From positions 36,015 to 100,014 of the forward strand of contig JBDRDJ010000031.1 of the NCBI GenBank assembly GCA_043820815.1: a DNA stretch of 64,000 nucleotides, read 5' to 3'. This document shows, in pieces, positions 8,965 through 43,640 of this stretch. The notes under the pieces were generated by a model. That model searched no databases, was not told where the DNA came from, and saw only the letters and a program-made list of their open reading frames with translations. Every line of letters starts with the position of its first letter. Position 1 is the stretch's first letter. This stretch comes from Candidatus Omnitrophota bacterium. GTDB lineage: Bacteria; Omnitrophota; Gorgyraeia; Duberdicusellales; 4484-171. Both the position numbers and the translations under genes were made by a program.

Positions 8965-9957
8965 TTATATATTATAAATATGTGGCTTGTACTTATTTAA
9001 ATTTTTCTTAAACCATTTACAGGTTAATTCAATACCTTTTTCAAGTGTTACTTTGGGCTGCCAGCCGCAAACATTCTTAAGTGCCCCGGAATCACAAACC
9101 AAGCGCTTGACCTCACTTTTTTCCGGCCGGATACGCTTTTTATCCTTAGCTATCCTCACTTTTTTACCAAGAACATTCCCAATAATACTTACTATTTCTT
9201 TAATAGATGCTTCCCGGCCGCTTCCGACATTATAGATATTACCGTGTGTATTTTTGGCCTCAGAAAGCAAGATAAAAGCATCAACCAGATTAGCTACATA
9301 ATTAAAATCCCTTGTTGTTTCTAAATTACCTAATTTTATAATTGATTTTCCTGATAATACCTGAGAAATAATTGTAGGTATTACTGCTCTGGCTGACTGC
9401 CTCGGGCCAAACGTATTAAATGGCCGCATTATTGTTAAAGGCAGGTTAAAAGACTTATTAAAAGAAAGCGCAAGATAATCCGCAGATGCTTTAGTCGCTG
9501 CGTAAGGCGACTGGGGATTTACAGGATGTTTTTCATCAATAGGAACGTATTGGGCTGTCCCAAATACCTCACTCGTTGAGGTATGAATTATCATATTTGT
9601 TTTAAATCTTCTTGCCGCTTGCAGTATGTTCAAAGCCCCTCTTATGTTGGTATCTATATAGGCGTCCTGGGATACGTAACTATACGGTATGCCTATTAGG
9701 GCAGCCAGATGAAAAACAGTATCTATTTGTTTCATAGCGTTATTTACGCTGTTAGGATCTCTTACATCTCCTAAAAATATTTCTATTCTTTTTAAATTAT
9801 CTCTGGATAACTCCTCAAGCCAGCCCCATGAATTAAAAGAATTATATAATACAAAAGCTTTTACTTTTGCACCTTTTCTTAACAGCCCTTCTACGAGATG
9901 ACTGCCTATAAACCCTTCTGAACCGGTAACTAATACTCTTTTATTTCTAAAATTCAT
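8965..9957 (-). CDS. Extended SDR, NDP-hexose 4,6-dehydratase/epimerase-like
   Basis: 330 aa with VLVTGSEGFIGSHL, STSEVFG and YAATKASADY (catalytic S/T-Y-K). Confidence 0.8.
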   Translation of the reverse strand: MNFRNKRVLVTGSEGFIGSHLVEGLLRKGAKVKAFVLYNSFNSWGWLEELSRDNLKRIEIFLGDVRDPNSVNNAMKQIDTVFHLAALIGIPYSYVSQDAYIDTNIRGALNILQAARRFKTNMIIHTSTSEVFGTAQYVPIDEKHPVNPQSPYAATKASADYLALSFNKSFNLPLTIMRPFNTFGPRQSARAVIPTIISQVLSGKSIIKLGNLETTRDFNYVANLVDAFILLSEAKNTHGNIYNVGSGREASIKEIVSIIGNVLGKKVRIAKDKKRIRPEKSEVKRLVCDSGALKNVCGWQPKVTLEKGIELTCKWFKKNLNKYKPHIYNI

Positions 9958-11783
9958 CCCGTCACCTTCCTATTTCTCTCTCTTAATTGGCGAGAGTAAG
10001 CCATTGTTGCTCCAAATAAACTCCAGAAGAAAACAGCCGAATAAGGCATCCCAAAAGTCACATAAAATAACGCAACTGTAAGCCAGTAAACAATAATGCT
10101 GACCAAAGATATTCCTGTAAATGATTTCTCCTTTATGAAAACCTTTACCATTCTAAATAAAACTGCAAACAGATTTATAATCAAAATTATCCCGATAATT
10201 CCTGTCCTGTAAATTACCTCAAGATATGAATTGTGAGCGGCAATCCATCCATCCCTGGTCCATTCACCGTAAGCCATTCTCATAATTTCAACACTTTCCG
10301 AACGAAGAGGCTTTCCAAAACTAAAACCAAATACCGCTTTCTCCTTTATCAGCTCCCTTATCATATCTCTCCAGGTAAATAACCGAAAAACTGTTGTGTT
10401 ATGCCGTTGGCCTAAACCTAAATCTATTCTAACTTCTTCGGCTTCGGCCGAAAGTTCCGGTTCTACTACAGGAGGAATAACAACTTGAGCAGTTTGAAAC
10501 TCTTTCTTAATCTCTTGCTTCTGAATAAAATTAACTATCTGCTCTCTTAATACCTTATCTTCGGGCAGAGCAACAATAAAATTACTTTCCTTATCCGGAA
10601 TCTTATAATCAATAGCCATTTCTTCCGGGGTTAAAAGAACCTCTTTATTAAAAGAGCTTTTATGCTGATTTAATATGACAGGTTCTACCTCTTTGGGTTC
10701 TACCTCTTTGGGTTCTACCTTATCGATAATACCTTTTTTAGCTATGATATACTCTATTATTTTTTCTCTTCGACTTAAATCGCTGGGTAATTTTATTAAT
10801 ATCTCTGAGGTTTCAATGTTTCTCAGAGCCCTTGCGGCTTCTTTTTCTCTGTTCTCATTCCATTCTTGCATTGTTTCTTTAGCAAACCGCATAACGCGGG
10901 GTAGTTCGGGTAAGTTTTCTTTACTTTCAGGGTTATAAAGCCTGACAGGAATGTCCATTTTCTTGTAATCTGCTCTCCTTTGCTCTATTAGCTTATCCCA
11001 ATCCTTTATAGATGACATCAATGTCTTGGGGGTCGTTAGAGATTGAATACTACTGTTATCTTTAAATCTAATCAGAACCGTAACAGAAATTAGTAAGCAT
11101 ATGCCAATTATAGCCGCCTTGTATCTATTTTTTAACTTTAAAATCAGAAGTGCAAGAAAAAGCAAAGACCCAAAACCAGCTACATGGCCGATTATCTGAG
11201 TCCGAGGACAATCTACAAGCAAAAATGGTTTAAAAAATATACACAAAATTATAAACCCTGAAATCTTAATAATCTTGCTTCTGCCGATAACTAAAAATAA
11301 AACCATTAGTATCAGATAGGTAAAATTATAATACGTGCCTATACCAAATAAAGCCAAAGCAAAGAATAGAAATAGTAGCATATTTACATTTACAAATTTA
11401 CTTTTATATACATCGTATGCAATTAAAGCAAATAAAGGATAATAAAACATTGCCGAATGCCTTAAGGCAAACGGCCCAAATTGGCTATACCCCCATAAAG
11501 CTTTTATCAAAATAAACAACAAATACGGAATCAGCAGCGCATACGCTTTGGTAAACTTTTTATTAATCAACCGCCATTTAAAAATAGTTAAAACAACGCA
11601 AATAAATAAAGAAATCTCACCGATAAAAACGGGAAAATTTAAGAATCCCGGCTCAATACGTATCTCGGAAAAGCTTTTATAATATGTCGAGTACCCTAAA
11701 AAAAGAAACCCTAAGATAGAAAGAATAAAAAAATCTATTTTATCTGCCTGGGATTCAATACCGAATTTCTTAAATAAATTCAT
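9954..11783 (-). CDS. Wzy_C-family membrane protein (O-antigen ligase / polymerase / O-oligosaccharyltransferase type) with a long charged insert
   Basis: 609 aa. It has multiple N-terminal TM helices, a KE-rich hydrophilic region of ~260 aa, then AHNSYLEVIYRTGIIGIILI (Wzy_C-like HN..L....G motif) and terminal TM helices. Confidence 0.65.
   Translation of the reverse strand: MNLFKKFGIESQADKIDFFILSILGFLFLGYSTYYKSFSEIRIEPGFLNFPVFIGEISLFICVVLTIFKWRLINKKFTKAYALLIPYLLFILIKALWGYSQFGPFALRHSAMFYYPLFALIAYDVYKSKFVNVNMLLFLFFALALFGIGTYYNFTYLILMVLFLVIGRSKIIKISGFIILCIFFKPFLLVDCPRTQIIGHVAGFGSLLFLALLILKLKNRYKAAIIGICLLISVTVLIRFKDNSSIQSLTTPKTLMSSIKDWDKLIEQRRADYKKMDIPVRLYNPESKENLPELPRVMRFAKETMQEWNENREKEAARALRNIETSEILIKLPSDLSRREKIIEYIIAKKGIIDKVEPKEVEPKEVEPVILNQHKSSFNKEVLLTPEEMAIDYKIPDKESNFIVALPEDKVLREQIVNFIQKQEIKKEFQTAQVVIPPVVEPELSAEAEEVRIDLGLGQRHNTTVFRLFTWRDMIRELIKEKAVFGFSFGKPLRSESVEIMRMAYGEWTRDGWIAAHNSYLEVIYRTGIIGIILIINLFAVLFRMVKVFIKEKSFTGISLVSIIVYWLTVALFYVTFGMPYSAVFFWSLFGATMAYSRQLRERNRKVTG
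10681..10721 (-). repeat. 15-bp in-frame tandem repeat, 2.7 copies, encoding EPKEV units
   Basis: Plus strand reads ggttctacctctttg ggttctacctctttg ggttctacctt. The protein reads KVEPKEVEPKEVEP. Confidence 0.95.
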
Positions 11784-14928: not shown

Positions 14929-15723
14929 TTACCATATTTTCCAAGGGGCGTTGCCTTTTGCCCAGAGGTCATTCAACAAATCCAGTTCGCGCTGGGTGTC
15001 CATGCATTGCCAGAAACCTTCGTGTTTGAAAACCGAAAGTTCGCCGTCTGACGCAAGCTTCTCAAGAGGCTCTGATTCTAAAGAGCAATCTTTGAAATCT
15101 GTAAGGTAGTTAAAGATGCCCTTGCTAAAAACGAAAAACCCTCCGTTTATTGAGCCTTTGGTTGTGCGGGATTTCTCATTAAACGAGATTACCTTATCAC
15201 CTTTGGCAATAAGCTCGCCAAACCGAGACGAAGGATGAACTCCCGTTACGCTTCCTATTCTTTTTTGCAGTTTATGAAACTCGAGCAGATTATTTATATT
15301 AATATCGGAGGCGCCGTCGCCGTAGGTAACCATGAAATTGTCTTCCTTAATATAGCGTTCTATTTTCTTAATCCTGGCTCCAGTTTGGGTATTTTCGCCT
15401 GTATCAACGAGCGTAACTTTCCAGCCATCCTCGGAATGGTTGGAATGATATTCTATTTTATTCTTTTTACCCAAATGAAGGGTAAAATCATTGTTCATTG
15501 CCTCATAATTTAGGAAATATTCTTTGATTCTTTCGCCTTTGTAACCCAAACAAAGAATAAAATCCTTAAATCCGTAATGAGCATAAATTTTCATTATATG
15601 CCAGAGCACCGGCCTGCCGCCAATTTCAACCATTGGTTTTGGTTTAAATTCTGTTTCTCCCCTTAAACGCGTGCCTCTACCGCCGCATAGAATTACAACC
15701 TTAAAATTGTTTGTTTTCATCAT
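14929..15723 (-). CDS. rfbF: Glucose-1-phosphate cytidylyltransferase
   Basis: 264 aa. VVILCGGRGTRLRGETEFKPKPMVEIGGRPVLWHIMKIYAHYGFKDFILCLGYKGE is a near-textbook RfbF sequence. Confidence 0.9.
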   Translation of the reverse strand: MMKTNNFKVVILCGGRGTRLRGETEFKPKPMVEIGGRPVLWHIMKIYAHYGFKDFILCLGYKGERIKEYFLNYEAMNNDFTLHLGKKNKIEYHSNHSEDGWKVTLVDTGENTQTGARIKKIERYIKEDNFMVTYGDGASDININNLLEFHKLQKRIGSVTGVHPSSRFGELIAKGDKVISFNEKSRTTKGSINGGFFVFSKGIFNYLTDFKDCSLESEPLEKLASDGELSVFKHEGFWQCMDTQRELDLLNDLWAKGNAPWKIW

Positions 15724-17717
15724 TACATTGCCCTCGCTAAGTTTTCGTAGTACCTATCACTTTTTTCATACAAAGATAAATACCGGCTTAACAATTCAAA
15801 ATCTGGTTTTGTATTGCAGCCGCCGTTTAAAACAATCTGCGACAATACATCATAAAGTTGTTTATGGCCATTGACATATGTAACCTGACTATCACCTACA
15901 CCTGAAAGAGGACACATATCAACTGTGCTATAAAGATATGGCACAATTACCGGAACCTCATTGTAAAGAGCATCAAAAACACACGATGACTCCTTAACTA
16001 CTATTGCCATTGAGCTATCTATAAACTCTGATAAAGGCACATCGCTAATTTCAAATACATCTTTATTTAAATACAACCCTATTGCTTCAACATCGCTTTT
16101 AACTGGGCAACAAGGATGACCCTTTAAAATGACTTTTAAGCCTAAATTATTATCATTTAAAGCATCATGGAGCATGCTTATTATTTCGCGGTTTTCTGAA
16201 GGTATGATGGATAGGGTTACAAGAATTTGCTTTCTTTTCGCTTTATCCCTTAATGCGCTTCGATAATTTAGAAGGCGCTGCATGCGAAAACCGCCTAAGA
16301 CAAACAATTCGTCATTTCTCCATCCACTCTTTAAAAACATGTTTCTTGTAATATCTCCAACGCACCCTAAGGAACTTGGCTTAGGCATGCTATTTATAAA
16401 ATCGTAATTATTCATATCTTGAGGATGATTAAAGTAATTAAGCAAAAGAAGGGGAACAATCGTATGTTGGATGCCGATTGATTTTATATCTTTTCTTCTT
16501 CTTGCGGCAATATTTAAGGCTTTTTCCCAAACATGCATCTCAGAGAAATAAATAATGCTTGAGCCTTCGGGCATTTGCGATATAAGATTTGTAAATGTGC
16601 GGTAGAATAACAGGCCTTGCATAAGAACTTTGCCTGAGAACGAAGAGATAAAATCTCTTTTAAAAAGAGGCCATAAATTTAAATAGTCACCATCTCCTTG
16701 CGAAAAACTAAAAAGGCTTTTGTATTTAAAATAATTCATCAAACACTTAAAAGAAATAATAAAATATGTAAACGCCGCTTTAACAAAATCCTTAGAGTTT
16801 AAAAAAGATTCAAGAGTAAAGAAACGCTCTCCTATATCTTTAATTCTTTGGGCAGTTTTTAAAGCATTACGCCAAGAAGAAGAATATATCGCTGTATACA
16901 TGGCGACCCAGGCATGAGGAAGCTTATGTGAATTATTAATTGCCTCCTGCAGAACGCCATAAGCTTTATTTACGAATTTACCGCGCCTTAGGGATTCGCG
17001 GTCAATAAAAGGAAACATTGTTATTAAAATCATATTGGTATCGCTTAAACTTTTTAAATCCCTCTTTTTAAAATAAAAAGACGCCTGTAAAACATGGCTC
17101 ATTTTCTTAATAAAAAAATTAAAAGCCCTTAAATGTTCCTTTAAAAAAATACATGATACAGAAATAAAACTTACAAAATATCTCATTATGCTTCGTAAAG
17201 ATACTCCTTGGGAGCTTTTGTTTTCCATCAAAGATTCTTTTAATATGCCAGGAGAAGAAAACCATACATTGTCACATTTAAGGTCTTTTTTTAGCCTCGC
17301 AATTGTAAGGGCTCTGCAAAAATCACCGAATGTATCGGTTTTTCCGGGGCTCTTCTCGGAAATTAAAGAGAACCACCATAAAGAAAAATCGGAAAATGGG
17401 TGTTTAAAATAATTTTTAAGGTTTTTCTTGCCTACCACCTCGTCATTGCCTGCTTTGTGAATGAATTCGATAAACACATCCTTAGAATCAAAAGCGCACT
17501 CATTAAATAAAGTGAGAAAGTCTACAGTTTCACAACTTACCTTCAAGCTTTCAAGCCTCTCTTTTACCTCTTTACTCACCTTAGCCGCCATATAACTAAT
17601 CGGGCAGATATAAACAAAAGAAGGCTCAGCCTTGGCTATATTTTTTAAAATTTCGCTTGCCTCATCGCGGTTGGTTAAAATTAATAAAATCCTCATACTA
17701 TTCCTATACACGTTCAA
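15723..17717 (-). CDS. Orphan 664-aa protein. The C-terminal part is GT-B-like, with an HP...SS motif pattern suggestive of a CMP-sugar transferase.
   Basis: I recognise no family by eye in the N-terminal ~400 aa. The C-terminal part reads KVILKGHPCCP...(about 40 aa)...VVKESSCVFDALYNEVPVIVPY. The CDS itself is solid; the function call is weak. Confidence 0.4.
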   Translation of the reverse strand: MNVYRNSMRILLILTNRDEASEILKNIAKAEPSFVYICPISYMAAKVSKEVKERLESLKVSCETVDFLTLFNECAFDSKDVFIEFIHKAGNDEVVGKKNLKNYFKHPFSDFSLWWFSLISEKSPGKTDTFGDFCRALTIARLKKDLKCDNVWFSSPGILKESLMENKSSQGVSLRSIMRYFVSFISVSCIFLKEHLRAFNFFIKKMSHVLQASFYFKKRDLKSLSDTNMILITMFPFIDRESLRRGKFVNKAYGVLQEAINNSHKLPHAWVAMYTAIYSSSWRNALKTAQRIKDIGERFFTLESFLNSKDFVKAAFTYFIISFKCLMNYFKYKSLFSFSQGDGDYLNLWPLFKRDFISSFSGKVLMQGLLFYRTFTNLISQMPEGSSIIYFSEMHVWEKALNIAARRRKDIKSIGIQHTIVPLLLLNYFNHPQDMNNYDFINSMPKPSSLGCVGDITRNMFLKSGWRNDELFVLGGFRMQRLLNYRSALRDKAKRKQILVTLSIIPSENREIISMLHDALNDNNLGLKVILKGHPCCPVKSDVEAIGLYLNKDVFEISDVPLSEFIDSSMAIVVKESSCVFDALYNEVPVIVPYLYSTVDMCPLSGVGDSQVTYVNGHKQLYDVLSQIVLNGGCNTKPDFELLSRYLSLYEKSDRYYENLARAM

Positions 17718-18606
17718 ATTCTTCCTTGCTAATATTTCTTGCCCTTTCCTGATATAGAATATTTAGCATATCGAGTATGCCTTGGCCCAAATCAACATAA
17801 CTGGAATCAATAACCCTTTTAGCTAATTTGGGGCGGAAATTATACGGTGTTATCTCATAATGGCCATCGTATGGCTCATCGATAAACTCTAAATCAATTT
17901 TATTATTGAGCATCTCTTTTATCATAATAAGCAAATCTTTAATACGCATTGGCTGCTGCCCGGTTATCATAACATACTGATTTTTAAATTTATCATCGAG
18001 AATCTTAACGCTAAGACGCGCTGCGTCATAAACATGGATATACTCTCTTATTTCATTTCCATCGCCCCGCCGGGTTATTTTATTATTGTTAAGCGCTTCT
18101 TCTAAAATACGGGCGATCCAGTTAGATTTATCAGCCCTTACACCATAGAGAGATCCATAACGTAAAATTGAAAAGTCTAAACCGTATTGTTTGTGAAAAC
18201 ACTCAATTATGAGCTCACATGCCTGCTTGCTTACGCGGTAAAAAGAACCGGCATCGCTATAAACATACACGGTGCTTGCGAAAATATAGCGTTTCACTTT
18301 ATTTAATCTGCAAGCTTCAAGAATATTTGTGTTTCCAACAATATTGGTTGATATTGTTTCTTTTGGTTTATGATAAGCGACATCGATATCTGTTATACCT
18401 GCGAAGTTGTATGCCGCATCCGCCCCTTTTAAAGCAAAAGAGACGGCATCTTGATCTAATATATCCCCTATTATCATTTCCTGGTCCTTTCTCAAATAAC
18501 GAGATTTATTTATGTCAAAAATCGAGACTTCGTATTTTTCTTCAGATAGATAATCAGCCACATGGCTTCCTAAGAAACCACTTCCTCCAAAAACTACTAC
18601 CTTCAT
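17704..18606 (-). CDS. Extended SDR, NDP-sugar epimerase/dehydratase family
   Basis: 300 aa with MKVVVFGGSGFLGSHV and YRVSKQACE (YxxxK). Confidence 0.8.
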   Translation of the reverse strand: MKVVVFGGSGFLGSHVADYLSEEKYEVSIFDINKSRYLRKDQEMIIGDILDQDAVSFALKGADAAYNFAGITDIDVAYHKPKETISTNIVGNTNILEACRLNKVKRYIFASTVYVYSDAGSFYRVSKQACELIIECFHKQYGLDFSILRYGSLYGVRADKSNWIARILEEALNNNKITRRGDGNEIREYIHVYDAARLSVKILDDKFKNQYVMITGQQPMRIKDLLIMIKEMLNNKIDLEFIDEPYDGHYEITPYNFRPKLAKRVIDSSYVDLGQGILDMLNILYQERARNISKEEFERV

Positions 18607-24756: not shown

Positions 24757-25524
24757 TCATTTAACTCCCGGTTTATACTTTTTAAATAATCCGTCGTTTA
24801 AAAGAGCTTTTTCTACTCTTTTTCTATCATCTTCATTATCTACCGCCATGGTTTTTATTTCTGTTTCAACGAGCTTAATTTTATAGCCGTACTCTAACAC
24901 TCTTACCATATCAACACTCTCAACACATTCAGTAGGGCTTGGTTTCAACTCAACGAATTTAAGCAGGAAATCTCTTCTAAAAGGGAGTATACAAACCTGT
25001 CTATATCTGTCAAAGCTTCCGGGATGCTTTTTAGCTGAAGGTATAGGCTCCCGGGAAAAATAAAGAGCATAATTTGATAAGTCTTTTACTACTTTTATAA
25101 AATTAGGGCTGTTAAAATCTCTATCATTATCTATCTTAGAAATAACATTGGTACAAACAAGGCTCTTGTCTTTAAAAAAGGGCTTAACGCCATCTTCAAT
25201 CATCTGAGGATAAATTAACGGCTCATCGCCCTGTATATTTACAACTACATCTGCATCGCTTTTAATATTTATACACGCCTCAGCAACTCTGTCTGAACAA
25301 GTCTTATGGGTATCCTTTGTCATGACGGCTAAACCGCCAAAACGCTCAACTTCATCTTTTATTTCGCGATCACATGTTGCAACATACAATTCATCCAAGA
25401 TCTTGCACATAGCCGAACGCCTGTAAACATGCTCAACCATCGTCATACCGCACATTTTACATAGCGGTTTACCGGGAAATCTTGTTGATGCCATGCGTGC
25501 CGGTATTATCCCAATAACTTTCAT
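24757..25524 (-). CDS. kdsB: KdsB-family 3-deoxy-2-ulosonic acid cytidylyltransferase
   Basis: 255 aa with IIPARMASTRFPGKPL and NIQGDEPL, the KdsB signatures. No kdsA is present in the window. Confidence 0.75.
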   Translation of the reverse strand: MKVIGIIPARMASTRFPGKPLCKMCGMTMVEHVYRRSAMCKILDELYVATCDREIKDEVERFGGLAVMTKDTHKTCSDRVAEACINIKSDADVVVNIQGDEPLIYPQMIEDGVKPFFKDKSLVCTNVISKIDNDRDFNSPNFIKVVKDLSNYALYFSREPIPSAKKHPGSFDRYRQVCILPFRRDFLLKFVELKPSPTECVESVDMVRVLEYGYKIKLVETEIKTMAVDNEDDRKRVEKALLNDGLFKKYKPGVK

Positions 25525-25529
25525 ATTTT

Positions 25530-26324
25530 CTACACCTTAACCTTAACTTTGCCCTTTACCATGTTATTAATTCTTTCGACTGAAGAAGAAGTATAATCCT
25601 GTAAAATTATCGCATCCGTACTGTAAGCAATAAAGTTGAATCCTTGATTAATTTTCTCCTCAACTTCTTGATAGCGGGGATAGACAATGTGCACACCCAA
25701 TGATTTGTTGTGTTTCTTTGCTGCAGCTTTTATTTTTGAAACAGCTTCAACAACCAAAGGATTATCAAAACCACCTGCCACCCCTAAAGATGCTGATATA
25801 TCATAAGGGCCAATTAAAATTCCATCTATATCTGTTTCTAATATACTGTCAATGTTTGAAAGTGCATCTTTATGTTCAATTTGCGCTATAACAATCATCT
25901 CTTTATTAGCCCTATCAAAATATTCTTTAAAATTAGAACCGTACCCCTGAGAACGGGCAATACCGGTTCCTCTTTTGCCTATAGGCGGATACATAGAAGA
26001 ACAAAGAGCTTCTTTTGCTTGATCTGCAGTGTTAACATTGGGAACAATTATACCGGCTGCTCCGGCATCTAAAACTCTCTTTATTTCTACATTATCATTG
26101 GATGAGAGCCTAACTAAAGGAATAATCCCTTTTGACTCTATTATCTGAAATAATACCTGTGTGGTTGATATATCAATTGCACTGTGCTCTAAATCAACTA
26201 CCAGCCAATCAAAACCTGCCTGAGCCATGATTTCAGCTGTAACAGGATGGCCAATTTGAAGCCAGCTTCCTATTGTAGTTTTACAATTTATTAACTTTTT
26301 CTTAAAAACTTCTCTTGCATTCAT
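25530..26324 (-). CDS. HpcH/HpaI-family class II (pyruvate-specific) aldolase
   Basis: 264 aa with GSWLQIGHPVTAEIMAQAGFDWLVVDLEHS and PPIGKRG, typical of HpcH/GarL/YfaU. Confidence 0.85.
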   Translation of the reverse strand: MNAREVFKKKLINCKTTIGSWLQIGHPVTAEIMAQAGFDWLVVDLEHSAIDISTTQVLFQIIESKGIIPLVRLSSNDNVEIKRVLDAGAAGIIVPNVNTADQAKEALCSSMYPPIGKRGTGIARSQGYGSNFKEYFDRANKEMIVIAQIEHKDALSNIDSILETDIDGILIGPYDISASLGVAGGFDNPLVVEAVSKIKAAAKKHNKSLGVHIVYPRYQEVEEKINQGFNFIAYSTDAIILQDYTSSSVERINNMVKGKVKVKV

Positions 26325-26371: not shown

Positions 26372-27043
26372 TTATTTCTTATTAACAATCCTATCGGCAT
26401 TTATCTCATCGATAAATTCTAAAACGCCTTCCATGCTTTTAAATTTTCCTTGAGTAATTTCATCTTGCGCCCATAACGCATTATCTTCTATAATACGGGC
26501 AATGAACTTAACGCCTGTATTTTTAGCTGCTTTAAGATCGTTTACCGCATCTCCGATAAAAACCGCCTCGCAAGGATTAAGTTTTAGGTCTTCTAAAATA
26601 TCTCCGATCAACTTAGCCTTTGTCGAAGGCGAACCAAAAACACCTTTAAAATACCCCCCTAAACCACGCCCTTTAACTATTTTTTTAATTTCTTTATCCG
26701 GCGTACCAGAAACAATAAATAAATCAAACTTTAAGCTGCATTTATCTATAAGCTCTTTGGCTCCCTTTACAAAAGGAGCGCTAATTACTTTCTCAACAAC
26801 TAAATTACTGAATTGGTCGCACAAGCTTAAAAATCGCTCTTTGGTCAAATCTTCCTTGATAATTGTTGAATAATAATATTTAAACTTATCATATCTTGAC
26901 ATTCCGCCGTTTTTAACGTGAAAATCGACAATCTCATCAACATACTCAGGATAACACTCAAACAAAGCCCTAAAAGCTTCTGTCTTAACATCAACCGATT
27001 CTGCAATAACACCGTCAAAATCAAATAGTATGCACTTTATCAT
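26372..27043 (-). CDS. HAD-IA phosphatase (PGP/beta-PGM-like)
   Basis: 223 aa with ILFDFDGVIAES (DxD nucleophile motif) and GDAVNDLKAA (motif IV). Confidence 0.85.
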   Translation of the reverse strand: MIKCILFDFDGVIAESVDVKTEAFRALFECYPEYVDEIVDFHVKNGGMSRYDKFKYYYSTIIKEDLTKERFLSLCDQFSNLVVEKVISAPFVKGAKELIDKCSLKFDLFIVSGTPDKEIKKIVKGRGLGGYFKGVFGSPSTKAKLIGDILEDLKLNPCEAVFIGDAVNDLKAAKNTGVKFIARIIEDNALWAQDEITQGKFKSMEGVLEFIDEINADRIVNKK

Positions 27044-27770
27044 CTTCTCTCATTCCTTGAAACCCTAAATTATCAACTATAAATTCAAACCATCTTATGT
27101 CATCTATAGTGTGGACGTCTACAAAACAATTATGGTTATGGTAGGATTGTTTTATACCTTTTATTTTCCTGCCCAAATAACTCCACGGCTTAATGCCATT
27201 GCTTTTATTGAGCCAAGAACTGTATCTAAAACACTCAACCGTATGATCTATCTCATAAGCCTCGCTGTCTTGACGTGAACCTGAAACTTTATCTTGAGTA
27301 TCAGGAAAATATGGGTTTAGAAAGCCCCCGCTCTCCTTCATTAAAGCCTCGGGGATATAGCCTGTTCTTCTTATGGTAACCGCAGAATCATAATCCTTAT
27401 TCTTTATAAGAAAACCTATGCATTTATCGAATATATCGGGATCGCGAAACGGCACAACGCACTGGGGCATCGCTATTATTTCTAAATCAGCGTGTTTTTC
27501 TTTAATAAAATTTATCGCGTGGTCAACTGACTCCATAAACTTTTCATTTTTGGCCAGCTCATCATCTCGCATTATTATTTGAGCGCCGGATTCTCTGGCA
27601 ATTTGGGCTGTTTTTTTACCGTTTGTGCTGACAAAAACACAATCCGCTTCTTTTGAATTCTTTGCATCATCAATCGCCCAGCTCAAAAGAGTTTTATCTT
27701 TTACTTTCCAGATATTTTTGCCGGGAAGCCCGATGCTTCCTTCTTTTGCCATAATCAAAACTATATTCAT
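27021..27770 (-). CDS. Divergent cytidylyltransferase of the acylneuraminate (CTP_transf_3) type
   Basis: 249 aa. IVLIMAKEGSIGLPGKNI stands in place of the canonical ARGGSKG..KN, and the overall layout is NeuA-like (VFVSTNG..., MPQCVVPFR). Confidence 0.55.
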   Translation of the reverse strand: MNIVLIMAKEGSIGLPGKNIWKVKDKTLLSWAIDDAKNSKEADCVFVSTNGKKTAQIARESGAQIIMRDDELAKNEKFMESVDHAINFIKEKHADLEIIAMPQCVVPFRDPDIFDKCIGFLIKNKDYDSAVTIRRTGYIPEALMKESGGFLNPYFPDTQDKVSGSRQDSEAYEIDHTVECFRYSSWLNKSNGIKPWSYLGRKIKGIKQSYHNHNCFVDVHTIDDIRWFEFIVDNLGFQGMREDDKVHTI

Positions 27771-27837: not shown

Positions 27838-29898
27838 TCATCTAAGTCTATCTGCGTTAGATTTGCGTGCATCCGGGTTATACAAAGCAAAGAGATCTTC
27901 TTTAATATTTTTAGAAGACACATCACAGCCATATTCCTTACCCTCTAAAGAGGAATTAACAAAATTAAAGAAATTTTTCCTGTACTCCTTTGGATATTTA
28001 AAATCTATTAACTCAGAATCGGTTAATGGGTTATTTTTAAAAATATTTATCACTTTCTGGAGCTTTACATTTAGAGTAATATTATCAGTAAAATAATATA
28101 CTGGGCTTCTTTTAACTTCATTAACTTCTTTGGTTTCGTCAACATTAAAATGATTATACCTTTGCCATTTATCATATAAAATGACAGGGATATTACTTTG
28201 AAGAGCTTCCTCTATGCAGGTAGATGAATAACTTACAAGCAAATCCGCAATTGAAAGAAGATTTACAAACGGGCCGTTTTTTACTACTGATAATCTGTTA
28301 CGGACAGGAAGAAGTTTATGAAATTCTCTCTCAGACATATCACAAACCGGATGCGGCCTGATAATCAAATATGTATCATCCAATGAATTAACTGCATGGG
28401 TTAAATCTATTAAGCTCGATATATATTCGTCAAGGGTTTCTTCCATATGAAATCGAAGAGCGTTTCTTGCCTTCTGAGTTGTTGCGTGCAAAATAATCTT
28501 TTTATTTGATGCTTTTTTAGGCAATTGCTTAATTACCTTAAGGCGCAAATCATCCCTTTTTATAGAGTAAAGCAGCGGCCCGCTCATTACCCGTGGACGA
28601 TCATCTTCATAAAAATTAAGAAATTTATCTGTCCAGGGAGTCTGAACAGCAACGTGCTTATATGTGTTAATTATTACACTGGTGGCCAACCGGTAATTCT
28701 CAATTCTTTCGGCCTGGTTGTTGGGAGGAACATGTGTGCCATGACTTATATTAAGAGACGGAAACCCTAAAATGTGGCTTAATTCTCCCATCATATAATA
28801 TGGGCCCACACTATACATTGCCATAAGCAGTTTTGGACGCAAACGCTTAAAAATGTGATACAGCACAAGCGTTGAATGCTGCAATGAAATGATTTCATGC
28901 CTCAAGCCGATATCTATTTTATCTAAAAGGTATCTATTGAAAGCAATCCCTTTATATGTTAAGAGCCCGGCAATATTTAAATTAACTTCTTTTATAAAAT
29001 TATTAAAAACTTTATTAAAAATATAAATTTGGCGGTGATTCTTCTTAAACTTCTTTCGCAGTAAATCTAAAGGAAGTGCTGCATGGAGTAGTTTTTCCTT
29101 TTTACCTATTTTTAAAATACTTTTGGCAAGCAAAATGACTTTAAAAACCTCTCTCTTAAATGTAAACTTATCTTCCCACAACATTATACTTTTAACTTGA
29201 GGGCTTTTCTCTTCGATTGCTCTTAGCAGATTTCCCATGTTATACGAAAGGCTAGGGATAACGATATATTTATCCTTATCTAATTTTTCTTTGTTAAGTT
29301 TGCTATATTCAATCGAAGCAAGGATTTGGCCAGCTATCCGAATTGCTCTTGCCATAAATACTGATAAATATTTGCTTCTTTTTCCTTTTATTTCATAACC
29401 AAAGAACTCAATGTTGTTAATCTTACAAAAATCTTCAACCAAAAACCCTAAAAACCTCTCACTATCCTGTATATAGCCCTTCTTTTTATACATAGACACA
29501 TAATTTCTAATTATCGGACAATGTATTTGGGTGATTTTGTGTTTTTTATTTATGGATCCAAGAACCTCAATAATCCAAAGGAAATGATTAATGTATAAAC
29601 GCAAATGGTGAATAAATGTTTCTTGATAGCCGTTTTTTATGCCAAATACATCAGTTAGGTTAATTTCTTCAACTAGCCTTAAGGTGATCTCTTCGGTTTT
29701 CTTGATTATTCTGCTTTGGGCCTCATTATCTAAGTATTTTATAGTATCGCCTGAGGAAATACCTTTTTTATTAAGAAAAATACGCACTTTAGGATGAAAA
29801 CATATTACAGAAACATCCTTATCGAGAAAAAAATCTTTCCTAGTTTTCTTTAATAATACTTTCACCTCGTCAATGAATTCAAATATTACTATTTTCAT
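27838..29898 (-). CDS. Orphan 686-aa protein. The C-terminal part is GT-B-like, with an HP...SST motif pattern suggestive of a CMP-sugar (sialyl/Kdo-type) transferase.
   Basis: LIIRPHPVCD...(about 40 aa)...LLVSYSSTCIEEALQSNIPVILYD. I cannot place the N-terminal ~420 aa by eye. The CDS itself is solid; the function call is weak. Confidence 0.4.
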   Translation of the reverse strand: MKIVIFEFIDEVKVLLKKTRKDFFLDKDVSVICFHPKVRIFLNKKGISSGDTIKYLDNEAQSRIIKKTEEITLRLVEEINLTDVFGIKNGYQETFIHHLRLYINHFLWIIEVLGSINKKHKITQIHCPIIRNYVSMYKKKGYIQDSERFLGFLVEDFCKINNIEFFGYEIKGKRSKYLSVFMARAIRIAGQILASIEYSKLNKEKLDKDKYIVIPSLSYNMGNLLRAIEEKSPQVKSIMLWEDKFTFKREVFKVILLAKSILKIGKKEKLLHAALPLDLLRKKFKKNHRQIYIFNKVFNNFIKEVNLNIAGLLTYKGIAFNRYLLDKIDIGLRHEIISLQHSTLVLYHIFKRLRPKLLMAMYSVGPYYMMGELSHILGFPSLNISHGTHVPPNNQAERIENYRLATSVIINTYKHVAVQTPWTDKFLNFYEDDRPRVMSGPLLYSIKRDDLRLKVIKQLPKKASNKKIILHATTQKARNALRFHMEETLDEYISSLIDLTHAVNSLDDTYLIIRPHPVCDMSEREFHKLLPVRNRLSVVKNGPFVNLLSIADLLVSYSSTCIEEALQSNIPVILYDKWQRYNHFNVDETKEVNEVKRSPVYYFTDNITLNVKLQKVINIFKNNPLTDSELIDFKYPKEYRKNFFNFVNSSLEGKEYGCDVSSKNIKEDLFALYNPDARKSNADRLR

Positions 29899-31713: not shown

Positions 31714-33435
31714 CTATATATCTAATTTATCAATATAATAATCCTTTGACATATATATAGCCGCTATCTCTCCAGTATCAACATTGTTTTCTTTTAAATA
31801 TTCTAGTGCATCCTCTTTTGAGAGAACAATAACTTTCCTATATTTCTCATTTATCAAGAATTCCTGACAGAATTCCTCTAAGGGCCTTTTTTTATATTGC
31901 CTGGGTATATCTGTCCTTAACAGATCTTTGTAATAGACAGCTGCATTAAAACAGGCTAAGTCACCCGCCCCGATAACATCTCCAACCCTTTCAAAGCCTC
32001 CCGTGGAATGATATGAGCTGTAGTCATGAGTAAATATGATGATACCTCCCTCGGCAAAATGACCAATTTTATTATTAATCTTGCTATATATCTTACCGGG
32101 TCCTTTTATCGCTGCCTTGGAAAGGCCAAAGAAAGACTTGCGGTAACAATCGTCAAATTTATCAAAAACAGTCCATACGCTTGTAATGAAATAAAAACCT
32201 AATGCTGCTAATCCAATTCTATAGTAAACCTTTTTACCGCTGCGCAAAAAACAGATAATTAAATCTGCGGCAATAACACTGCTAAATAATGCTATGGCAT
32301 TAGCAATATCTGTTCGATAAAAAACAAGTATGTATACCGCGAATAAACATCCGTATATTGCTAAGAACAAGATGCTTTTGGTTCGGACACGGGTTAATAT
32401 TCTAACTATTACAAAAATAAGCACTGTAACGGCAAGAAAAATAAATATTGATAATATGGCTAGTATTTTTACAGATGTACTTAAAGATGTAAGGCTCCCA
32501 CCTTCTCTTATCAGCCGCCTAACATCTTCTTTAAGCTTTACATTATGCTTTAGCCGATTAAAAATTATATTGTTATACATTATGGAGAAACCCGTTGATT
32601 TTATAAATAAATCGTTAGCATTAAAGGCGTACCCCTGGATGTTCCTGTTCCACCTTTGGGATGCAGTTTTAAATCTATAGCTTAAAGGAATGGGTTTGCC
32701 GGTTTTCATATATGCTCCCAGAGGGAAAAGGGCGGCGACCATTAATAAAACTATTAAAATCAATAGTAATTTCCTAAAACATATTTCCTTTCTCAATAAT
32801 GAAAGAAAACCAGTTATTGCAAGAACTGGCAAGAAAACAAAGCCGCTTTCGTAGTTGAATATAGTTAACAGGAGAAAAACCGCACAAGCCATCAGAGAAA
32901 AATTCTTCTTTTCCTGAATATATCTAATAAGGAAATAAAGGCTTGCAGCTCCCGTCAAGGTGTTAGTGGCATGAGAATGAAAAGCATTCCAATTAAGCGC
33001 CTTAAAACCGATATAATAGTTAAGCGCAAACAGTGTTGCCGCTAGAATGGCCAAGGCTTTATCTTGATAGTATCTATCAACAATGAGAAAAACAAAGAAT
33101 GCTGTTAAAATGTAGAAGGCCATGATAATAAAGTGGAAAAATACAGGGCTTAAGGATATCGATGTAATTAGAAGATTTATCAAATTATAAAAAGGTGCAA
33201 AATGCCCACCCTGGACGTGCCCGCCGGTAGTATCAAAAATCAAAGGAAGAATTGGAGAGAATTTCGCTTTCACCATGATTAAATTTGTATATTGATAATC
33301 ATCGCTCCAATTTCCCGTATCAAAAGTAAGAATTAATAAAGGGAGATTAACGATAATTAGATAAGCCAAAACTGATTTTCTGTCTTTAGATATAACCGAA
33401 TATATTTTTCTTAAAATATTCATGGAACAAAACAA
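31714..33435 (-). CDS. Polytopic membrane protein, GT-C-like (ArnT/PMT_2-type) glycosyltransferase candidate
   Basis: 573 aa with about 11-13 hydrophobic helices. An Asp-rich motif (NWSDDYQY) follows directly after TM1, as in GT-C first-loop motifs. The C-terminal ~130 aa domain is soluble. Confidence 0.5.
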   Translation of the reverse strand: MFCSMNILRKIYSVISKDRKSVLAYLIIVNLPLLILTFDTGNWSDDYQYTNLIMVKAKFSPILPLIFDTTGGHVQGGHFAPFYNLINLLITSISLSPVFFHFIIMAFYILTAFFVFLIVDRYYQDKALAILAATLFALNYYIGFKALNWNAFHSHATNTLTGAASLYFLIRYIQEKKNFSLMACAVFLLLTIFNYESGFVFLPVLAITGFLSLLRKEICFRKLLLILIVLLMVAALFPLGAYMKTGKPIPLSYRFKTASQRWNRNIQGYAFNANDLFIKSTGFSIMYNNIIFNRLKHNVKLKEDVRRLIREGGSLTSLSTSVKILAILSIFIFLAVTVLIFVIVRILTRVRTKSILFLAIYGCLFAVYILVFYRTDIANAIALFSSVIAADLIICFLRSGKKVYYRIGLAALGFYFITSVWTVFDKFDDCYRKSFFGLSKAAIKGPGKIYSKINNKIGHFAEGGIIIFTHDYSSYHSTGGFERVGDVIGAGDLACFNAAVYYKDLLRTDIPRQYKKRPLEEFCQEFLINEKYRKVIVLSKEDALEYLKENNVDTGEIAAIYMSKDYYIDKLDI

Positions 33436-36491: not shown

Positions 36492-37283
36492 CTATTTATC
36501 GTTATTAATAGATTTGGCATATTTATTACCAAGATTTTTTGGCACGGCAATTCTTTTCTTAAGATAGTCCCCTCTTGAAAGCCACTTCTCAAGAAGGACA
36601 TAAAAAATAATAAACATATAGCGGCTTCCCATTTCTTTGATTTTGAATTTAGCGACGCCTTCGACTCTGCCATACCAATTTATAGGGACGGTTGCATACG
36701 TATAACCTCTTACGATTGCTTTTAAGGGCATCTCGACAGTTAAATTAAAATGGTGCGACAACAAAGGCTTAACTCCTTCTATAACTTCCCGCCGGTAACA
36801 TTTAAAGGCGTTTGTTATATCGTTGTTTCTAAGTCCTAATAAAAGCTTTATAAAAATATTTCCGGCCCGGTTAAAAATATACTTAATATACGGGTAGTTT
36901 ACGACTTTGGCTGATTTAACAAATCTTGAACCAAATACGCAATCATAGCCTTCTTCTAATTTCTTGTAATATTTAACAATATCTTTGGGTTCGTCAGAGC
37001 CGTCTGCCATAACAATAACAACGGCATCGCCCATATAAACCTCGAGGCCTCGCCTGACAGCTAACCCAAATCCGTGAGGCGGATGATTCCGAACATAGTT
37101 AATTCTCTTATCGTACTTTGCTATGTCCTGCATTGCTTCATAAGTCGAATCAGTTGAACCGTCATCAACCATAACTATCTCAAAATCAATATTCTCTGCG
37201 TGCAGCTCTTTAACAATGGCTAAAACTGTTTTTGTCAAAGAAGCCTCTTCATTGCGCGCTGGTATAACTACCGACAAAAGCAT
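36492..37283 (-). CDS. Dpm1/ArnC-like GT2 (polyprenyl-phosphate glycosyltransferase type)
   Basis: I chose the start at ATG 37283 (AAGGAG lies 6 nt upstream): MLLSVVIPARNEEASL...MVDDGSTDST...VMADGSD. The longer track ORF overlaps the upstream gene by 176 nt. Confidence 0.8.
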   Translation of the reverse strand: MLLSVVIPARNEEASLTKTVLAIVKELHAENIDFEIVMVDDGSTDSTYEAMQDIAKYDKRINYVRNHPPHGFGLAVRRGLEVYMGDAVVIVMADGSDEPKDIVKYYKKLEEGYDCVFGSRFVKSAKVVNYPYIKYIFNRAGNIFIKLLLGLRNNDITNAFKCYRREVIEGVKPLLSHHFNLTVEMPLKAIVRGYTYATVPINWYGRVEGVAKFKIKEMGSRYMFIIFYVLLEKWLSRGDYLKKRIAVPKNLGNKYAKSINNDK

Positions 37284-39351
37284 CCCCATCTCCTTTACAT
37301 TCCTTGAAAGCGGCTGGTTCACCGTCAAGGCCTGCCACCTTATCCTTTCCCCATTTTTCCCGGTAAGAATTAACAGCATGATTAACTGCTTCATTTCTAT
37401 TGAGTTTTTTATCAAATCCATCAATTAAGTTTTTAATAAAAAAACCGATTCTTTCGGAAGATCTTCCGTCTCTGAAAGGATCGACATCTTCAGGTATAAT
37501 CAATGGGGCTTTTCCCGCATTTAAATATTCCTTTATTTTACCCATGGCTTTCTCCAAATCATTAAAGACATAAGAATTTAAATTTCTTTTATAAAACGGG
37601 TGGCTTGAGAGATTTTGTAAATCGATAGTTATTGCAGGGACCCCTGAAAGAGCTGCCTCAATTGCCGGTGTTGAATAAACCCCAAAACCAACAACCAGAT
37701 CCGCGGCCTGGGCGGCTTCATTGGGAAAGGTATCTTTGTTTAAAAGAATGCAGCGGCCGGTTTTAAGAGCTTTCTTTGCTAAAAGCTCAAATTCTTTCAA
37801 TGCCGGCTGGCTCCAGAATTCTCCATTTTTCTTAGGCTTTGTGATAAGCCCGAATCTCGAGTCGTTTATGGCCTTATTTAAAAGAGCTTTATACACATCA
37901 GCGATTGCCTTATTGGCCTTTGGCCAATCATCAGAATAAGATTGATCAAAAAACGTAACGATGAACTGTGCTCCATTTTCTATTAATTGCCTGCGGTAGG
38001 GATGGGAACTATCTTTACAATTAGAAAAGAAGTTATCATAGGGGTATCCTGTGTAAACAAAATAATTTACATTGTAGAAATCTTTATTGAAGAAATTATT
38101 CTTATAATAAGACCCCCAGACAAAATATATGTCGTAAGGCTTTCCGATAGAAATCTCGGTATGGTCATAATTTGACCAGTGATGGCAGGCATCAATGCCT
38201 CCTGAACGTTCAATTGCGATATTCGAAGCCGTCATATCTATTCCTGTTTCATAAAGTCCGTAATGAACTTTAATGCCGTATATCTTAAAAAAAGACTCAT
38301 AAACGGCCGTTCTATTCGCTAAATCCGACAGGATATGCCACTGCCAGAATGAAATACGGCTTACTTTAAATAAACAATAAAAAAACGATTTTGTCATTCT
38401 ATATAAACAGAGAATCTGGTTCTTAACGAATAGGATGTGCGGCAGTTTGTAGAATTCAGGCGAGGTGCTCGTTGAACCTACCCGCGGCATCTTCCAGGGA
38501 AGCAAATTTACCCATTTCATGCCGTAGGATTCTATAAAATTTATGGTTTCTTTGGCCGGCGGCCAGCAGTCATACCTGAAATAAACTAAAATTTTAGAAG
38601 GGTCAATGCCTGAAGCAGGAAACCAGAAATAATCCGACCTTTTGCTTAAATCCGCGCCTTGAGCATGAAGAACAGCTATTTTAGGCTTGTTACCCTTGGC
38701 AGCCGGGATATTTTTCCCGGGTAAAAACATAAAAATCAGGTTTGCCGTAATTTCAATTGCTACCTTAAAAGGGATGAATAACCCTGAGGCTGTCCTTTTT
38801 ATGTCGGGATAACCCAAAACAAGATAAAACAGCCTGTGCCCGTAACCGGATAAATGTTTTTTCCATGGACTGCTTTTTATTATCAAAACATCCCGTAAAT
38901 CTTTCTGGTTATTTAAGTTTTCTTTTTCCCAGCGCATAAAATTACTCAAAATAAAAAAATCCTCAATATCCTTAGCGATTTCCTGTTTTAAGAATAAATC
39001 TATTTTTGATTTATTAAAAATGCCTGATATAATTCTGGCAAGCCAATCATTTTTTAAATACTGATTGCCAAAATCTATCGCGGCTTTTGATTTCTCGCGG
39101 TATGCTCTATGGTAAAGCTCTCTTTCATCGCAGGCAGACATTTCAGGTTCAATCCGGGATACATGTCTAAAATCAAACATTCTGTTAATCCCGCATATAC
39201 GGATTACAATCTCTGCACCTTTTGTTATTCGAATATATATTATTCTTTTATAACCGCGGCTAAAATGCAGCAAAATTATACACGCAAGCGAAATAACGCC
39301 AACGGTGTCTGCCCAGCATTGAAAAATACTTTCTTTTTCTCTCTCCATCAT
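37249..39351 (-). CDS. Orphan 700-aa protein with an N-terminal hydrophobic segment and a GT-B-like C-terminal part (KP in place of the HP motif)
   Basis: GLITKPKKNG...(about 45 aa)...LVVGFGVYSTPAIEAALSGVPAITID. I recognise no other family by eye. Confidence 0.35.
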   Translation of the reverse strand: MMEREKESIFQCWADTVGVISLACIILLHFSRGYKRIIYIRITKGAEIVIRICGINRMFDFRHVSRIEPEMSACDERELYHRAYREKSKAAIDFGNQYLKNDWLARIISGIFNKSKIDLFLKQEIAKDIEDFFILSNFMRWEKENLNNQKDLRDVLIIKSSPWKKHLSGYGHRLFYLVLGYPDIKRTASGLFIPFKVAIEITANLIFMFLPGKNIPAAKGNKPKIAVLHAQGADLSKRSDYFWFPASGIDPSKILVYFRYDCWPPAKETINFIESYGMKWVNLLPWKMPRVGSTSTSPEFYKLPHILFVKNQILCLYRMTKSFFYCLFKVSRISFWQWHILSDLANRTAVYESFFKIYGIKVHYGLYETGIDMTASNIAIERSGGIDACHHWSNYDHTEISIGKPYDIYFVWGSYYKNNFFNKDFYNVNYFVYTGYPYDNFFSNCKDSSHPYRRQLIENGAQFIVTFFDQSYSDDWPKANKAIADVYKALLNKAINDSRFGLITKPKKNGEFWSQPALKEFELLAKKALKTGRCILLNKDTFPNEAAQAADLVVGFGVYSTPAIEAALSGVPAITIDLQNLSSHPFYKRNLNSYVFNDLEKAMGKIKEYLNAGKAPLIIPEDVDPFRDGRSSERIGFFIKNLIDGFDKKLNRNEAVNHAVNSYREKWGKDKVAGLDGEPAAFKECKGDGDAFVGSYTSAQ

Positions 39352-40487: not shown

Positions 40488-40499
40488 CTCCTCTTTAAC

Positions 40500-42166: not shown

Positions 42167-42197
42167 TTTAATTTTTGATATTTGATTTTTGATTTAT
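42128..42197 (-). repeat. Copy A of a ~70-nt duplicated segment (31-nt A-rich leader plus the first 13 codons of the SDR gene)
   Basis: Minus strand reads ATAAATCAAAAATCAAATATCAAAAATTAAA ATG ACA AAT CAA AAT TCA AAA TTA TCT CTA AAC ATT TTA. It is ~90 percent identical to 53978-54048. Confidence 0.85.
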
Positions 42198-42208
42198 TTA
42201 CGTTACCG

Positions 42209-43630: not shown

Positions 43631-43640
43631 ATTAATCCTC

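Follow-up and report, generated by a model that had tools for sequence, protein, structure and literature searches.

Among glycosyltransferases that use sugars activated with cytidine monophosphate (CMP), the KpsC and WbbB enzymes contain a conserved histidine donating a proton to the phosphate of CMP, and they share a His-Pro (HP) motif with the CMP-sialic-acid transferases (PMC10148158). In β-transferases of 3-deoxy-D-manno-octulosonic acid (Kdo), an invariant QXXXD motif carries the Asp nucleophile (PMC10148158). Proteins of the BFO_1060 family are genetically required for the addition of pseudaminic (Pse) and legionaminic (Leg) acid derivatives to the O-glycan of Tannerella forsythia; their sequences combine a GT-B/TagB domain with the HP motif of sialyltransferases (PMC5420450). 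Knowledge of nonulosonic-acid and CMP-sugar transferases is scarce (PMC5420450). Here we consider a gene encoding a protein of 657 amino acids (aa) in a 64,000-nucleotide (nt) stretch of Candidatus Omnitrophota DNA (contig JBDRDJ010000031.1 of assembly GCA_043820815.1, positions 36,015–100,014), further referred to as the window. The gene is a divergent member of a catalogued, uncharacterised family, and is neither an orphan nor a new kind of system. Its product is predicted to have the GT-B glycosyltransferase fold, and its conserved genomic partner is a cytidylyltransferase gene. With slightly better than even confidence, we regard the product as a GT-B transferase using a CMP-activated acidic sugar supplied by the upstream cassette.

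The protein matches the NCBIfam family TIGR04326 (O_ant_LIC13510, "surface carbohydrate biosynthesis protein") with E = 3.1e-59 and 200.9 bits, residues 72–621 being aligned with model positions 28–577 of 602 in one collinear stretch. A word-indexed search yielded 42 homologs, three of which had already been named TIGR04326 by JGI. The family was studied using the alignment of 36 relatives (A1) and the profile of its C-terminal domain (A3); a second alignment (A2) represented the family of a 686-aa protein from the same window (35 members). All 36 relatives match TIGR04326 (best E = 3e-76). The A1 profile retrieved 7561 representative clusters at E ≤ 1e-3, including 1651 at E ≤ 1e-30, from 1.84 billion representatives searched. 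The protein had been described as an orphan in the initial annotation, and given these matches the term has to be dropped. As judged by sequence, homology to TIGR04326 is clear and the Omnitrophota-centred clade is a divergent branch outside the trusted threshold; its members are annotated as hypothetical because they score below the curated cutoff.

The genomic context was compared in 53 related loci from named genomes, in which six-frame open reading frames (ORFs) were scored with iterated profiles. Genes within 10 kb were counted in the 23 loci that extend for more than 8 kb on each side. The sampled taxa were Omnitrophota, Planctomycetota, Nitrospirota including Magnetominusculus, Clostridia, Dehalococcoidia, Thermodesulfobacteriota, Elusimicrobia, Prochlorococcus, and Gammaproteobacteria including Coxiellaceae. 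Genes of the CTP_transf_3 family were found in 20 of the 23 loci (87%), family 2 glycosyltransferase (GT2) genes in 21, and 2-hydroxyacid dehydrogenase genes in 15. The remaining counts were 7 for RfbF-like genes, 6 for HpaI-type aldolases, 5 for NeuB and 4 for NeuC. The CTP_transf_3 gene precedes the TIGR04326 gene in 24 of the 28 loci having upstream sequence, and these represent at least eight phyla or classes. RfbF-like genes are never upstream, and are the immediate downstream neighbor in only about five loci. The gene order is strongly conserved and co-directional, and the same pattern is seen in four metagenomic contexts with precomputed Pfam matches. Given one to three cytidylyltransferase genes per genome and a 20-kb interval, we would expect chance co-occurrence in at most a few percent of loci; this is a rough estimate with no measured control. 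Hence, the co-occurrence with NeuA/KdsB-type genes, which the initial annotation suggested looking for, is borne out, and the conserved partner of the gene is a NeuA/KdsB-type cytidylyltransferase rather than the CDP-hexose genes (CDP, cytidine diphosphate).

The CDP-hexose genes were ruled out as a conserved functional partner, given the low number of loci with RfbF-like genes. Two TIGR04326 matches (E < 1e-20) on the same strand are present in each of three loci, L011, L026 and L051. They are adjacent in L051 and separated by one to three genes in L026 and L011; each of the three pairs might also be a single gene split over two ORFs.

Structural models were built by AlphaFold2 with the family alignments. 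The model of the 657-aa protein has a mean predicted local distance difference test score (pLDDT) of 91.6 and a predicted template modelling score (pTM) of 0.92; for the 686-aa protein, pLDDT is 89.4. A Foldseek search of the Protein Data Bank (PDB) with the former yielded 130 matches at E ≤ 1e-3. All 50 of these that were listed are GT-B proteins, among them uridine diphosphate (UDP)-sugar 2-epimerases including NeuC, trehalose-6-phosphate synthase (Tps1), and TagF. The matches listed for the 686-aa model are also all GT-B: UDP-sugar 2-epimerases including NeuC, VldE/ValL, CalG-type and other glycosyltransferases, a TagF-like capsule polymerase, and a polysialyltransferase. Template modelling (TM) scores on the target are 0.5–0.64 across both models. 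The 657-aa protein is thus predicted to have a GT-B fold composed of two Rossmann-like α/β halves, with an extra region at the N-terminus.

The layout of the protein is given in Table 1 together with other features of the window. In the extra N-terminal region, F97, W107, W108, S110, E114 and K115 are invariant in A1, and K119 and T120 are nearly so. A 42-residue helix joins this region to the GT-B core. Its hydropathy on the Kyte–Doolittle scale peaks at residue 167 with 1.52 in a 19-residue interval, compared to a family median of 1.71 for this maximum; in the model, the helix may serve for peripheral membrane association or oligomerisation. The N-terminal half of the core is presumed from the model to be the acceptor-binding side; E386, E391-K392 (within E-M-H-V-W-E-K, 16521–16541) and R471 are invariant there. 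The C-terminal half is the presumed nucleotide-binding domain. It contains H527, the sole invariant His of the family, preceded by K525 (Lys or Arg in every member) and followed by P528 (in at least 90% of members). Further downstream, S570 is Ser or Thr in 100% of members, and the S570/S571 region is the presumed phosphate-binding site. In the loop after the first strand of this half, S496 is Ser or Thr, and E501 is Asp or Glu, in 92% of members each, the family consensus being S-I-S-P-x-E. By sequence position and secondary structure, this loop would lie in the place of the QXXXD nucleophile loop of β-Kdo transferases. The list of invariant or near-invariant polar residues includes E114, K115, K119, D348, S352, E386, E391, K392, D427, R471, S496 and E501.

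Table 1. Features of the TIGR04326-family gene and related genes in the window (positions in the window; residues of the 657-aa protein unless otherwise stated)
Feature	Position	Strand	Basis or remark
TIGR04326-family coding sequence, 657 aa	15726..17696	-	Stop codon TAA 15723-15725; TTG 17717 is a mechanical ORF start only
TAATG overlap, stop of the 657-aa gene and start of rfbF	15721..15725	-	rfbF = 14929-15723
Extra N-terminal α/β region ahead of the GT-B core, residues 1-160	17217..17696	-	DSSP of the AlphaFold model: strands 2-7, 27-32, 54-57, 143-146
Near-invariant S-L-W-W-F-S-L-I-S-E-K-x-x-x-K-T, residues 105-120	17337-17384	-	Conservation; 17334-17384 (to D121) checked by translation
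Long helix with hydrophobic N-terminal half, residues 167-208	17073..17198	-	Helix 167-208 in the model
N-terminal Rossmann-like half of the GT-B core with inserted helices, residues 222-481	16254..17033	-	Secondary structure, Foldseek (about 460 columns), conservation
C-terminal Rossmann-like half of the GT-B core, residues 490-625	15822..16229	-	hhalign, weak Capsule_synth match (499-585), strand/helix pattern
S496-I-I-P-S-E501-N loop after the first strand of the C-terminal half	16191..16211	-	Conservation, translation
HP motif K525-G-H527-P528	16113..16124	-	Translation, conservation
E569-S570-S571, strand end just ahead of a helix	15984..15992	-	Translation, conservation
Short-chain dehydrogenase/reductase (SDR), epimerase/dehydratase, directly upstream	17704..18606	-	7-nt gap; commonest immediate upstream neighbor across related loci
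KdsB-type CTP_transf_3 cytidylyltransferase	24757..25524	-	NF009905, 283.7 bits at a cutoff of 255; candidate producer of the CMP donor
HpaI-type aldolase	25530-26324	-	Library annotation
CTP_transf_3 gene	27021-27770	-	PseF and KdsB-like matches
686-aa remote relative	27838..29898	-	Precomputed Pfam PF27859 (LIC12162); R-P-H-P 28348-28359 (its residues 514-517), S-Y-S-S-T 28219-28233 (556-560)
CTP_transf_3 gene	40500-41210	-	Pfam CTP_transf_3

The top Foldseek matches, UDP-sugar 2-epimerases including the hydrolysing NeuC (5xvs), are also consistent with a nucleotide-sugar hydrolase of the NeuC/LegG/PseG type. Such an enzyme would free a (deoxy)hexose from a nucleoside diphosphate (NDP)- or CDP-sugar, with or without 2-epimerisation. 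The next step, ahead of CMP activation, would be the condensation of this sugar with pyruvate or phosphoenolpyruvate (PEP) by an HpaI-type aldolase or a NeuB-type synthase. A His...D-S-G-G arrangement occurs in this domain of the 2-epimerases, too. HpaI-type aldolases need a free aldehyde substrate, and the window encodes such an aldolase; in addition, the gene is translationally coupled to CDP-hexose genes both in the window and in L001. We nevertheless consider a hydrolase unlikely. The Foldseek ranking among GT-B folds at about 10% identity does not discriminate between functions, Epimerase_2 (PF02350) is matched by none of the 36 members even at E ≤ 1, and the family profiles reach the NeuC of the window only at E = 0.13–0.72. 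Besides, condensing enzymes accompany the gene in no more than about half of the loci (HpaI in 6 and NeuB in 5 of the 23, compared to 20 with CTP_transf_3), and RfbF-like genes in 7 only.

Sequence comparisons point in another direction. Pfam Capsule_synth (PF05159, KpsC/KpsS) is the sole recurrent meaningful Pfam match, with 11 of the 36 members hit at E ≤ 1 (best E = 3.8e-4). The 657-aa protein itself scores 16.7 bits (E = 0.0054, gathering threshold 20). Neither the protein alone nor the full-length profile retrieved anything meaningful from the PDB sequences, the result being two designed proteins at E about 1. The search with A3 retrieved five sequences only, all below the threshold: three of KpsC (E = 0.16–0.21) and two of the SiaD polysialyltransferase (E = 0.32). 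In these sub-threshold alignments HMMER places the K-x-H-P of the family on K-V-H-P of KpsC and K-L-H-P of SiaD, and the family S-S is matched with T-S of KpsC. BFO_1060 (NCBIfam NF046086) is matched by 3 of the 36 TIGR04326 relatives (best E = 1e-5) and by 27 of the 35 members of the 686-aa family (best E = 4e-9); both BFO_1060 and TIGR04396 are cross-matched by members of the two families. Taken at the level of sequence, all these weak signals point to cytidine-nucleotide GT-B transferases. Of the two motifs characteristic of bacterial sialyltransferases (GT38, GT52 and GT80), HP is present as H527-P528, and D/E-D/E-G is absent.

The structural matches include TagF (3l7j, E = 4.5e-7), and the TagF-like capsule polymerase 8qoy matches the 686-aa model. 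This brings in a TagF/TagB-like phosphotransferase that would take a CDP-(deoxy)hexose made by RfbF/RfbG, or a CDP-polyol, as a donor for a phosphodiester-linked surface polymer. A conserved His-Pro with Ser-Ser downstream of it is also a feature of the TagF-family enzymes. The nonulosonic-acid transferases of Tannerella were reported to have a TagB-superfamily domain (PMC5420450), and the stop codon of the gene overlaps the rfbF start. In our estimate a phosphotransferase is improbable, since Glyphos_transf (PF04464) is matched by none of the 36 members at E ≤ 1, the link to RfbF is not conserved (7 of the 23 loci, never upstream), and there is no TagD/TarI-type CDP-polyol gene among the annotated neighbors.

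We return to a transferase acting on a CMP-activated sugar. A CMP-activated ulosonic-type donor appears to be most likely because of the CTP_transf_3 linkage combined with the affinities to KpsC, the polysialyltransferase, and BFO_1060. The data show the family membership, the fold, the conservation of the motifs, the remote kinship with the 686-aa protein, and the linkage of the genes. The identity of the donor, the parts played by individual residues, and the choice of a transferase over a hydrolase are inferred, in the following form. The C-terminal Rossmann half would bind the donor activated by a cytidine nucleotide, H527 (K-x-H-P motif) would make contact with the leaving phosphate or protonate it, and S570/S571 at the helix N-terminus would bind this phosphate, with K525 as a part of the phosphate site. 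Binding of the growing surface glycan would be the task of the N-terminal half, and one of the invariant acidic residues E386 and E391, the candidate catalytic bases, would activate the acceptor hydroxyl. The donor would be a CMP-activated acidic (ulosonic-type) sugar produced by the conserved upstream cassette, that is, CTP_transf_3, 2-hydroxyacid dehydrogenase, SDR, radical S-adenosylmethionine (SAM) protein, aminotransferase, haloacid dehalogenase (HAD) phosphatase and, in some loci, the HpaI-type aldolase.

Several observations count against this reading. The best Foldseek matches of the 657-aa model are 2-epimerases and not transferases, and the links to KpsC and the polysialyltransferase are each non-significant as sequence matches. 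No [DE][DE]G motif is conserved in 30% or more of the sequences anywhere in A1 or A2; a literal QXXXD is absent at the corresponding loop (S-I-I-P-S-E), and there is no conserved Gln in it. The TIGR04326 score of 200.9 bits falls short of the curated cutoff of 250, and the literature search revealed no paper naming TIGR04326 and no characterised TIGR04326 enzyme. Finally, any of the three CMP-sugar branches of the window, or its CDP-hexose branch, might supply the donor.

The initial annotation regarded the 657-aa and 686-aa proteins as paralogs with the same HP...SS order and spacing. The latter is upheld by exact counts: the distances from H527 to S570 and from H516 to S559 are both 43 residues. 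The C-terminal text quoted there is present in the translation, and both proteins do begin with a β-strand in the AlphaFold models (residues 2–7 and 2–6, respectively). The 686-aa protein has weak NCBIfam matches to BFO_1060, TIGR04396, TIGR04331 and TIGR04326. For LIC12162 and "surface carbohydrate biosynthesis protein", the literature search yielded one genome paper only, with an incidental mention.

BLASTP comparison of the two proteins is marginal (26.6 bits, E = 0.003, 23% identity across 83 aa). The similarity of the profiles, which had been named as a check, is significant: in the hhalign comparison of A1 with A2, 149 columns are aligned at 17% identity, with a probability of 95.6% and E = 1.3e-8, and residues 505–657 correspond to 495–651 of the 686-aa protein. 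In this register K525-x-H527-P528 falls on R514-P-H516-P517, and S570-S571 on S559-T560. The relaxed local and global modes of hhalign revealed no supported similarity in the first ~500 residues (the global score of 49 is lower than the local scores of 75–80). Among six-frame ORFs of at least 100 aa in the window, the 686-aa ORF is the sole significant non-self match, with E = 3.7e-6 for A1 and 1.3e-7 for A3.

The secondary-structure order is collinear over the whole length: in a crude alignment of the DSSP strings of the two models, the score far exceeds that of segment-shuffled controls (335 vs 165±19, and 248 vs 128±20 for the N-terminal 460–480 residues). The common architecture consists of the extra N-terminal α/β region, the long helix (167–208 in the 657-aa protein, 177–203 in the 686-aa one), and the GT-B core with inserted helices. 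Comparison of the predicted structures, also proposed initially, thus finds the glycosyltransferase fold GT-B in both proteins, and a family unrelated to glycosyl transfer is not indicated.

One could still ascribe the HP...SS likeness to convergence, or to the generic Rossmann β-loop-α, in two functionally unrelated genes, in keeping with the BLASTP value and the lack of detectable similarity in the N-terminal ~500 residues. We regard this as very improbable in view of the profile–profile E-value, the exclusive cross-match in the window, the same fold with collinear secondary structure, the matches of both families to BFO_1060 and TIGR04396, and the presence of both families in loci L006, L007 and L016. 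Therefore, the paralogy holds only at the depth of a superfamily (E = 1.3e-8, collinear GT-B folds); the two proteins belong to different catalogued families, and detectable homology of the sequences is confined to the C-terminal, nucleotide-binding half-domain. That they are two related transferases with different donor or acceptor specificity is plausible and agrees with the data. The 686-aa family occurs within 10 kb of the TIGR04326 gene in only 3 of the 35 related loci, and the 686-aa protein is probably a very distant second enzyme serving another of the three CMP-sugar branches.

The gene corresponds to a minus-strand ORF at 15723..17717. The length of 664 aa assigned to it initially is counted from TTG at 17717, and only the ORF itself stands. 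The supported start is ATG at 17696, which yields 657 aa with the N-terminus MRILLILTN; it is preferred because the deposited protein and the N-termini of homologs align at that Met. AGGAA is located 4 nt 5' of this ATG, and 7 nt separate the gene from the stop codon of the preceding SDR gene. The product is 100% identical to the deposited "hypothetical protein" ABH872_07615 from a Candidatus Omnitrophota metagenome-assembled genome. At the other end, the stop codon and the rfbF ATG do share one base, the last A of TAA being the first letter of ATG. The rfbF product is glucose-1-phosphate cytidylyltransferase (TIGR02623, 345 bits, cutoff 300). A 45%-identical homolog in L001 also overlaps rfbF, by 4 nt. 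Hence, of the suggested translational coupling with the CDP-hexose genes, the overlap is real and retained in L001, but the linkage is not family-wide. According to the annotation of neighboring genes, the gene was correctly placed at the junction of the tailoring block and the CDP-hexose branch.

All 55 ORFs of at least 150 aa in the window are on the minus strand with approximately 34–43% GC, and many of their boundaries overlap or nearly abut; the entire 64 kb make up one co-directional polysaccharide super-locus. Upstream of the gene, in the order of transcription, are the genes for the 686-aa protein, CTP_transf_3, HAD phosphatase, HpaI-type aldolase, KdsB-type cytidylyltransferase and 2-hydroxyacid dehydrogenase. 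They are followed by radical SAM/SPASM, HisC/CobD-like aminotransferase, hexapeptide acetyltransferase, B12-radical SAM, methyltransferase and SDR genes. Downstream of the gene are RfbF, a CDP-glucose-4,6-dehydratase-like SDR, an RmlD-like reductase, and a GT2.

The aldolase, of the HpcH/HpaI pyruvate-dependent class II type, adjoins the KdsB-type cytidylyltransferase (24757–26324, minus strand). The same pairing is observed in ten related loci (L001, L003, L006, L007, L012, L025, L039, L040, L047, L048). This suggests that a 3-deoxy-2-ulosonic acid is produced via a pyruvate aldolase and not by PEP-dependent KdsA/NeuB; a literature search for HpcH, cytidylyltransferase and polysaccharide found nothing relevant.

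A canonical nonulosonic-acid cluster occupies positions 39348–49747 of the minus strand. It encodes NeuB (368.8 bits), hydrolysing NeuC (403.6 bits, 46382–47548), a guanosine diphosphate (GDP)-L-fucose-synthase-like SDR, a NeuD-type acetyltransferase, a DegT aminotransferase, a PseB/Polysacc_synt_2 dehydratase, a B12-radical SAM protein, an SDR, CTP_transf_3, and the WbuX N-acetyl-sugar amidotransferase (332 bits). The latter suggests an acetimidoyl-modified sugar of the Leg/Pse type.

Two genes downstream of this third CTP_transf_3 gene, a 700-aa protein is encoded (37249–39351, minus strand) that has no match in the Pfam and NCBIfam libraries used; one homolog, P0244, carries the newer precomputed Pfam family PF27878 (PFTS_polysacc). 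Aligned to TIGR04326 by hhalign (53% probability, E = 1.4e-4, 343 columns), it has L-I-T-K-P-K-K on I-L-K-G-H-P, with Lys for His, Y-S-T-P-A-I-E-A-A-L on E-S-S-C-V-F-D-A-L, and E368 on E386. Judging from this alignment, the protein seems to be a third relative sharing this architecture, and an even more remote one. Thus, the window contains three CTP_transf_3 genes and three proteins of 657–700 aa from three families, and there could be one transferase per CMP-sugar branch, given GT-B for the 657-aa and 686-aa proteins and a weak profile link for the 700-aa one. In other loci, a PF27859-type gene directly precedes CTP_transf_3 (L003/L007, L006 and L057), or a GT2 gene is in between (L016).

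Two more ORFs of the minus strand deserve mention. One of 573 aa (31714–33435) has no Pfam or NCBIfam match and is hydrophobic, apparently with several membrane spans as seen by eye; a polymerase or a GT-C-like function may be considered for it. The other, of 609 aa (9954–11783), has only a sub-threshold Wzy_C match (30 bits, threshold 31.7).

A broader possibility, which we put forward only tentatively, is that TIGR04326, PF27859 and PF27878 proteins form an unclassified family of cytidine-nucleotide-dependent glycosyltransferases outside CAZy that installs an undescribed CMP-activated acidic sugar. If so, some loci would use a pyruvate-dependent HpaI-type aldolase to build this sugar and a KdsB-type enzyme to activate it, in replacement of PEP-dependent KdsA/NeuB; the cassette is conserved in Omnitrophota, Planctomycetota, Nitrospirota, Elusimicrobiota and others. 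On a smaller scale, a large family of hypothetical proteins gains a confident GT-B fold and a strong genomic partner, CTP_transf_3, and the candidate catalytic residues are now named (K525, H527, S570, E386, E391 and R471). The fold, the residues and the partner make the donor hypothesis directly testable; the advance is at the level of annotation and concerns one family member.

In comparison with known systems, the TIGR04326 family shares with the 657-aa protein the near full-length match and the location in surface-polysaccharide loci; the family itself is without assigned activity, and the clade of the 657-aa protein scores below its cutoff. UDP-GlcNAc 2-epimerases and NeuC are nearest by structure among the Foldseek matches (E = 1.8e-9, TM-scores on target reaching 0.63). 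None of the 36 members has a profile match to them, and the window has a genuine NeuC gene at another place. The 686-aa protein is similar in size, the N-terminal strand, GT-B and basic-x-H-P followed by S-S/T at 43 residues, but has conserved S-H-G-T-H in the N-terminal half where the 657-aa family has E-M-H-x-W-E-K. SiaD (5wc6, GT38) and the Tannerella Pse/Leg transferases resemble the protein in the HP motif of the C-terminal domain and in CMP-nonulosonate gene neighbors; they are 380–445 aa long, as compared to 657 aa here, the family studied lacks D/E-D/E-G, and the E-values are weak. KpsC/KpsS (CAZy GT107) and WbbB (GT99) are considerably smaller, without the extra N-terminal region, and have QXXXD in place of S-I-x-P-x-E. 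With the 657-aa protein they share the GT-B-like fold with inserted helices, the CMP-sugar context, and K-x-H-P followed by T/S-S 43–46 residues downstream.

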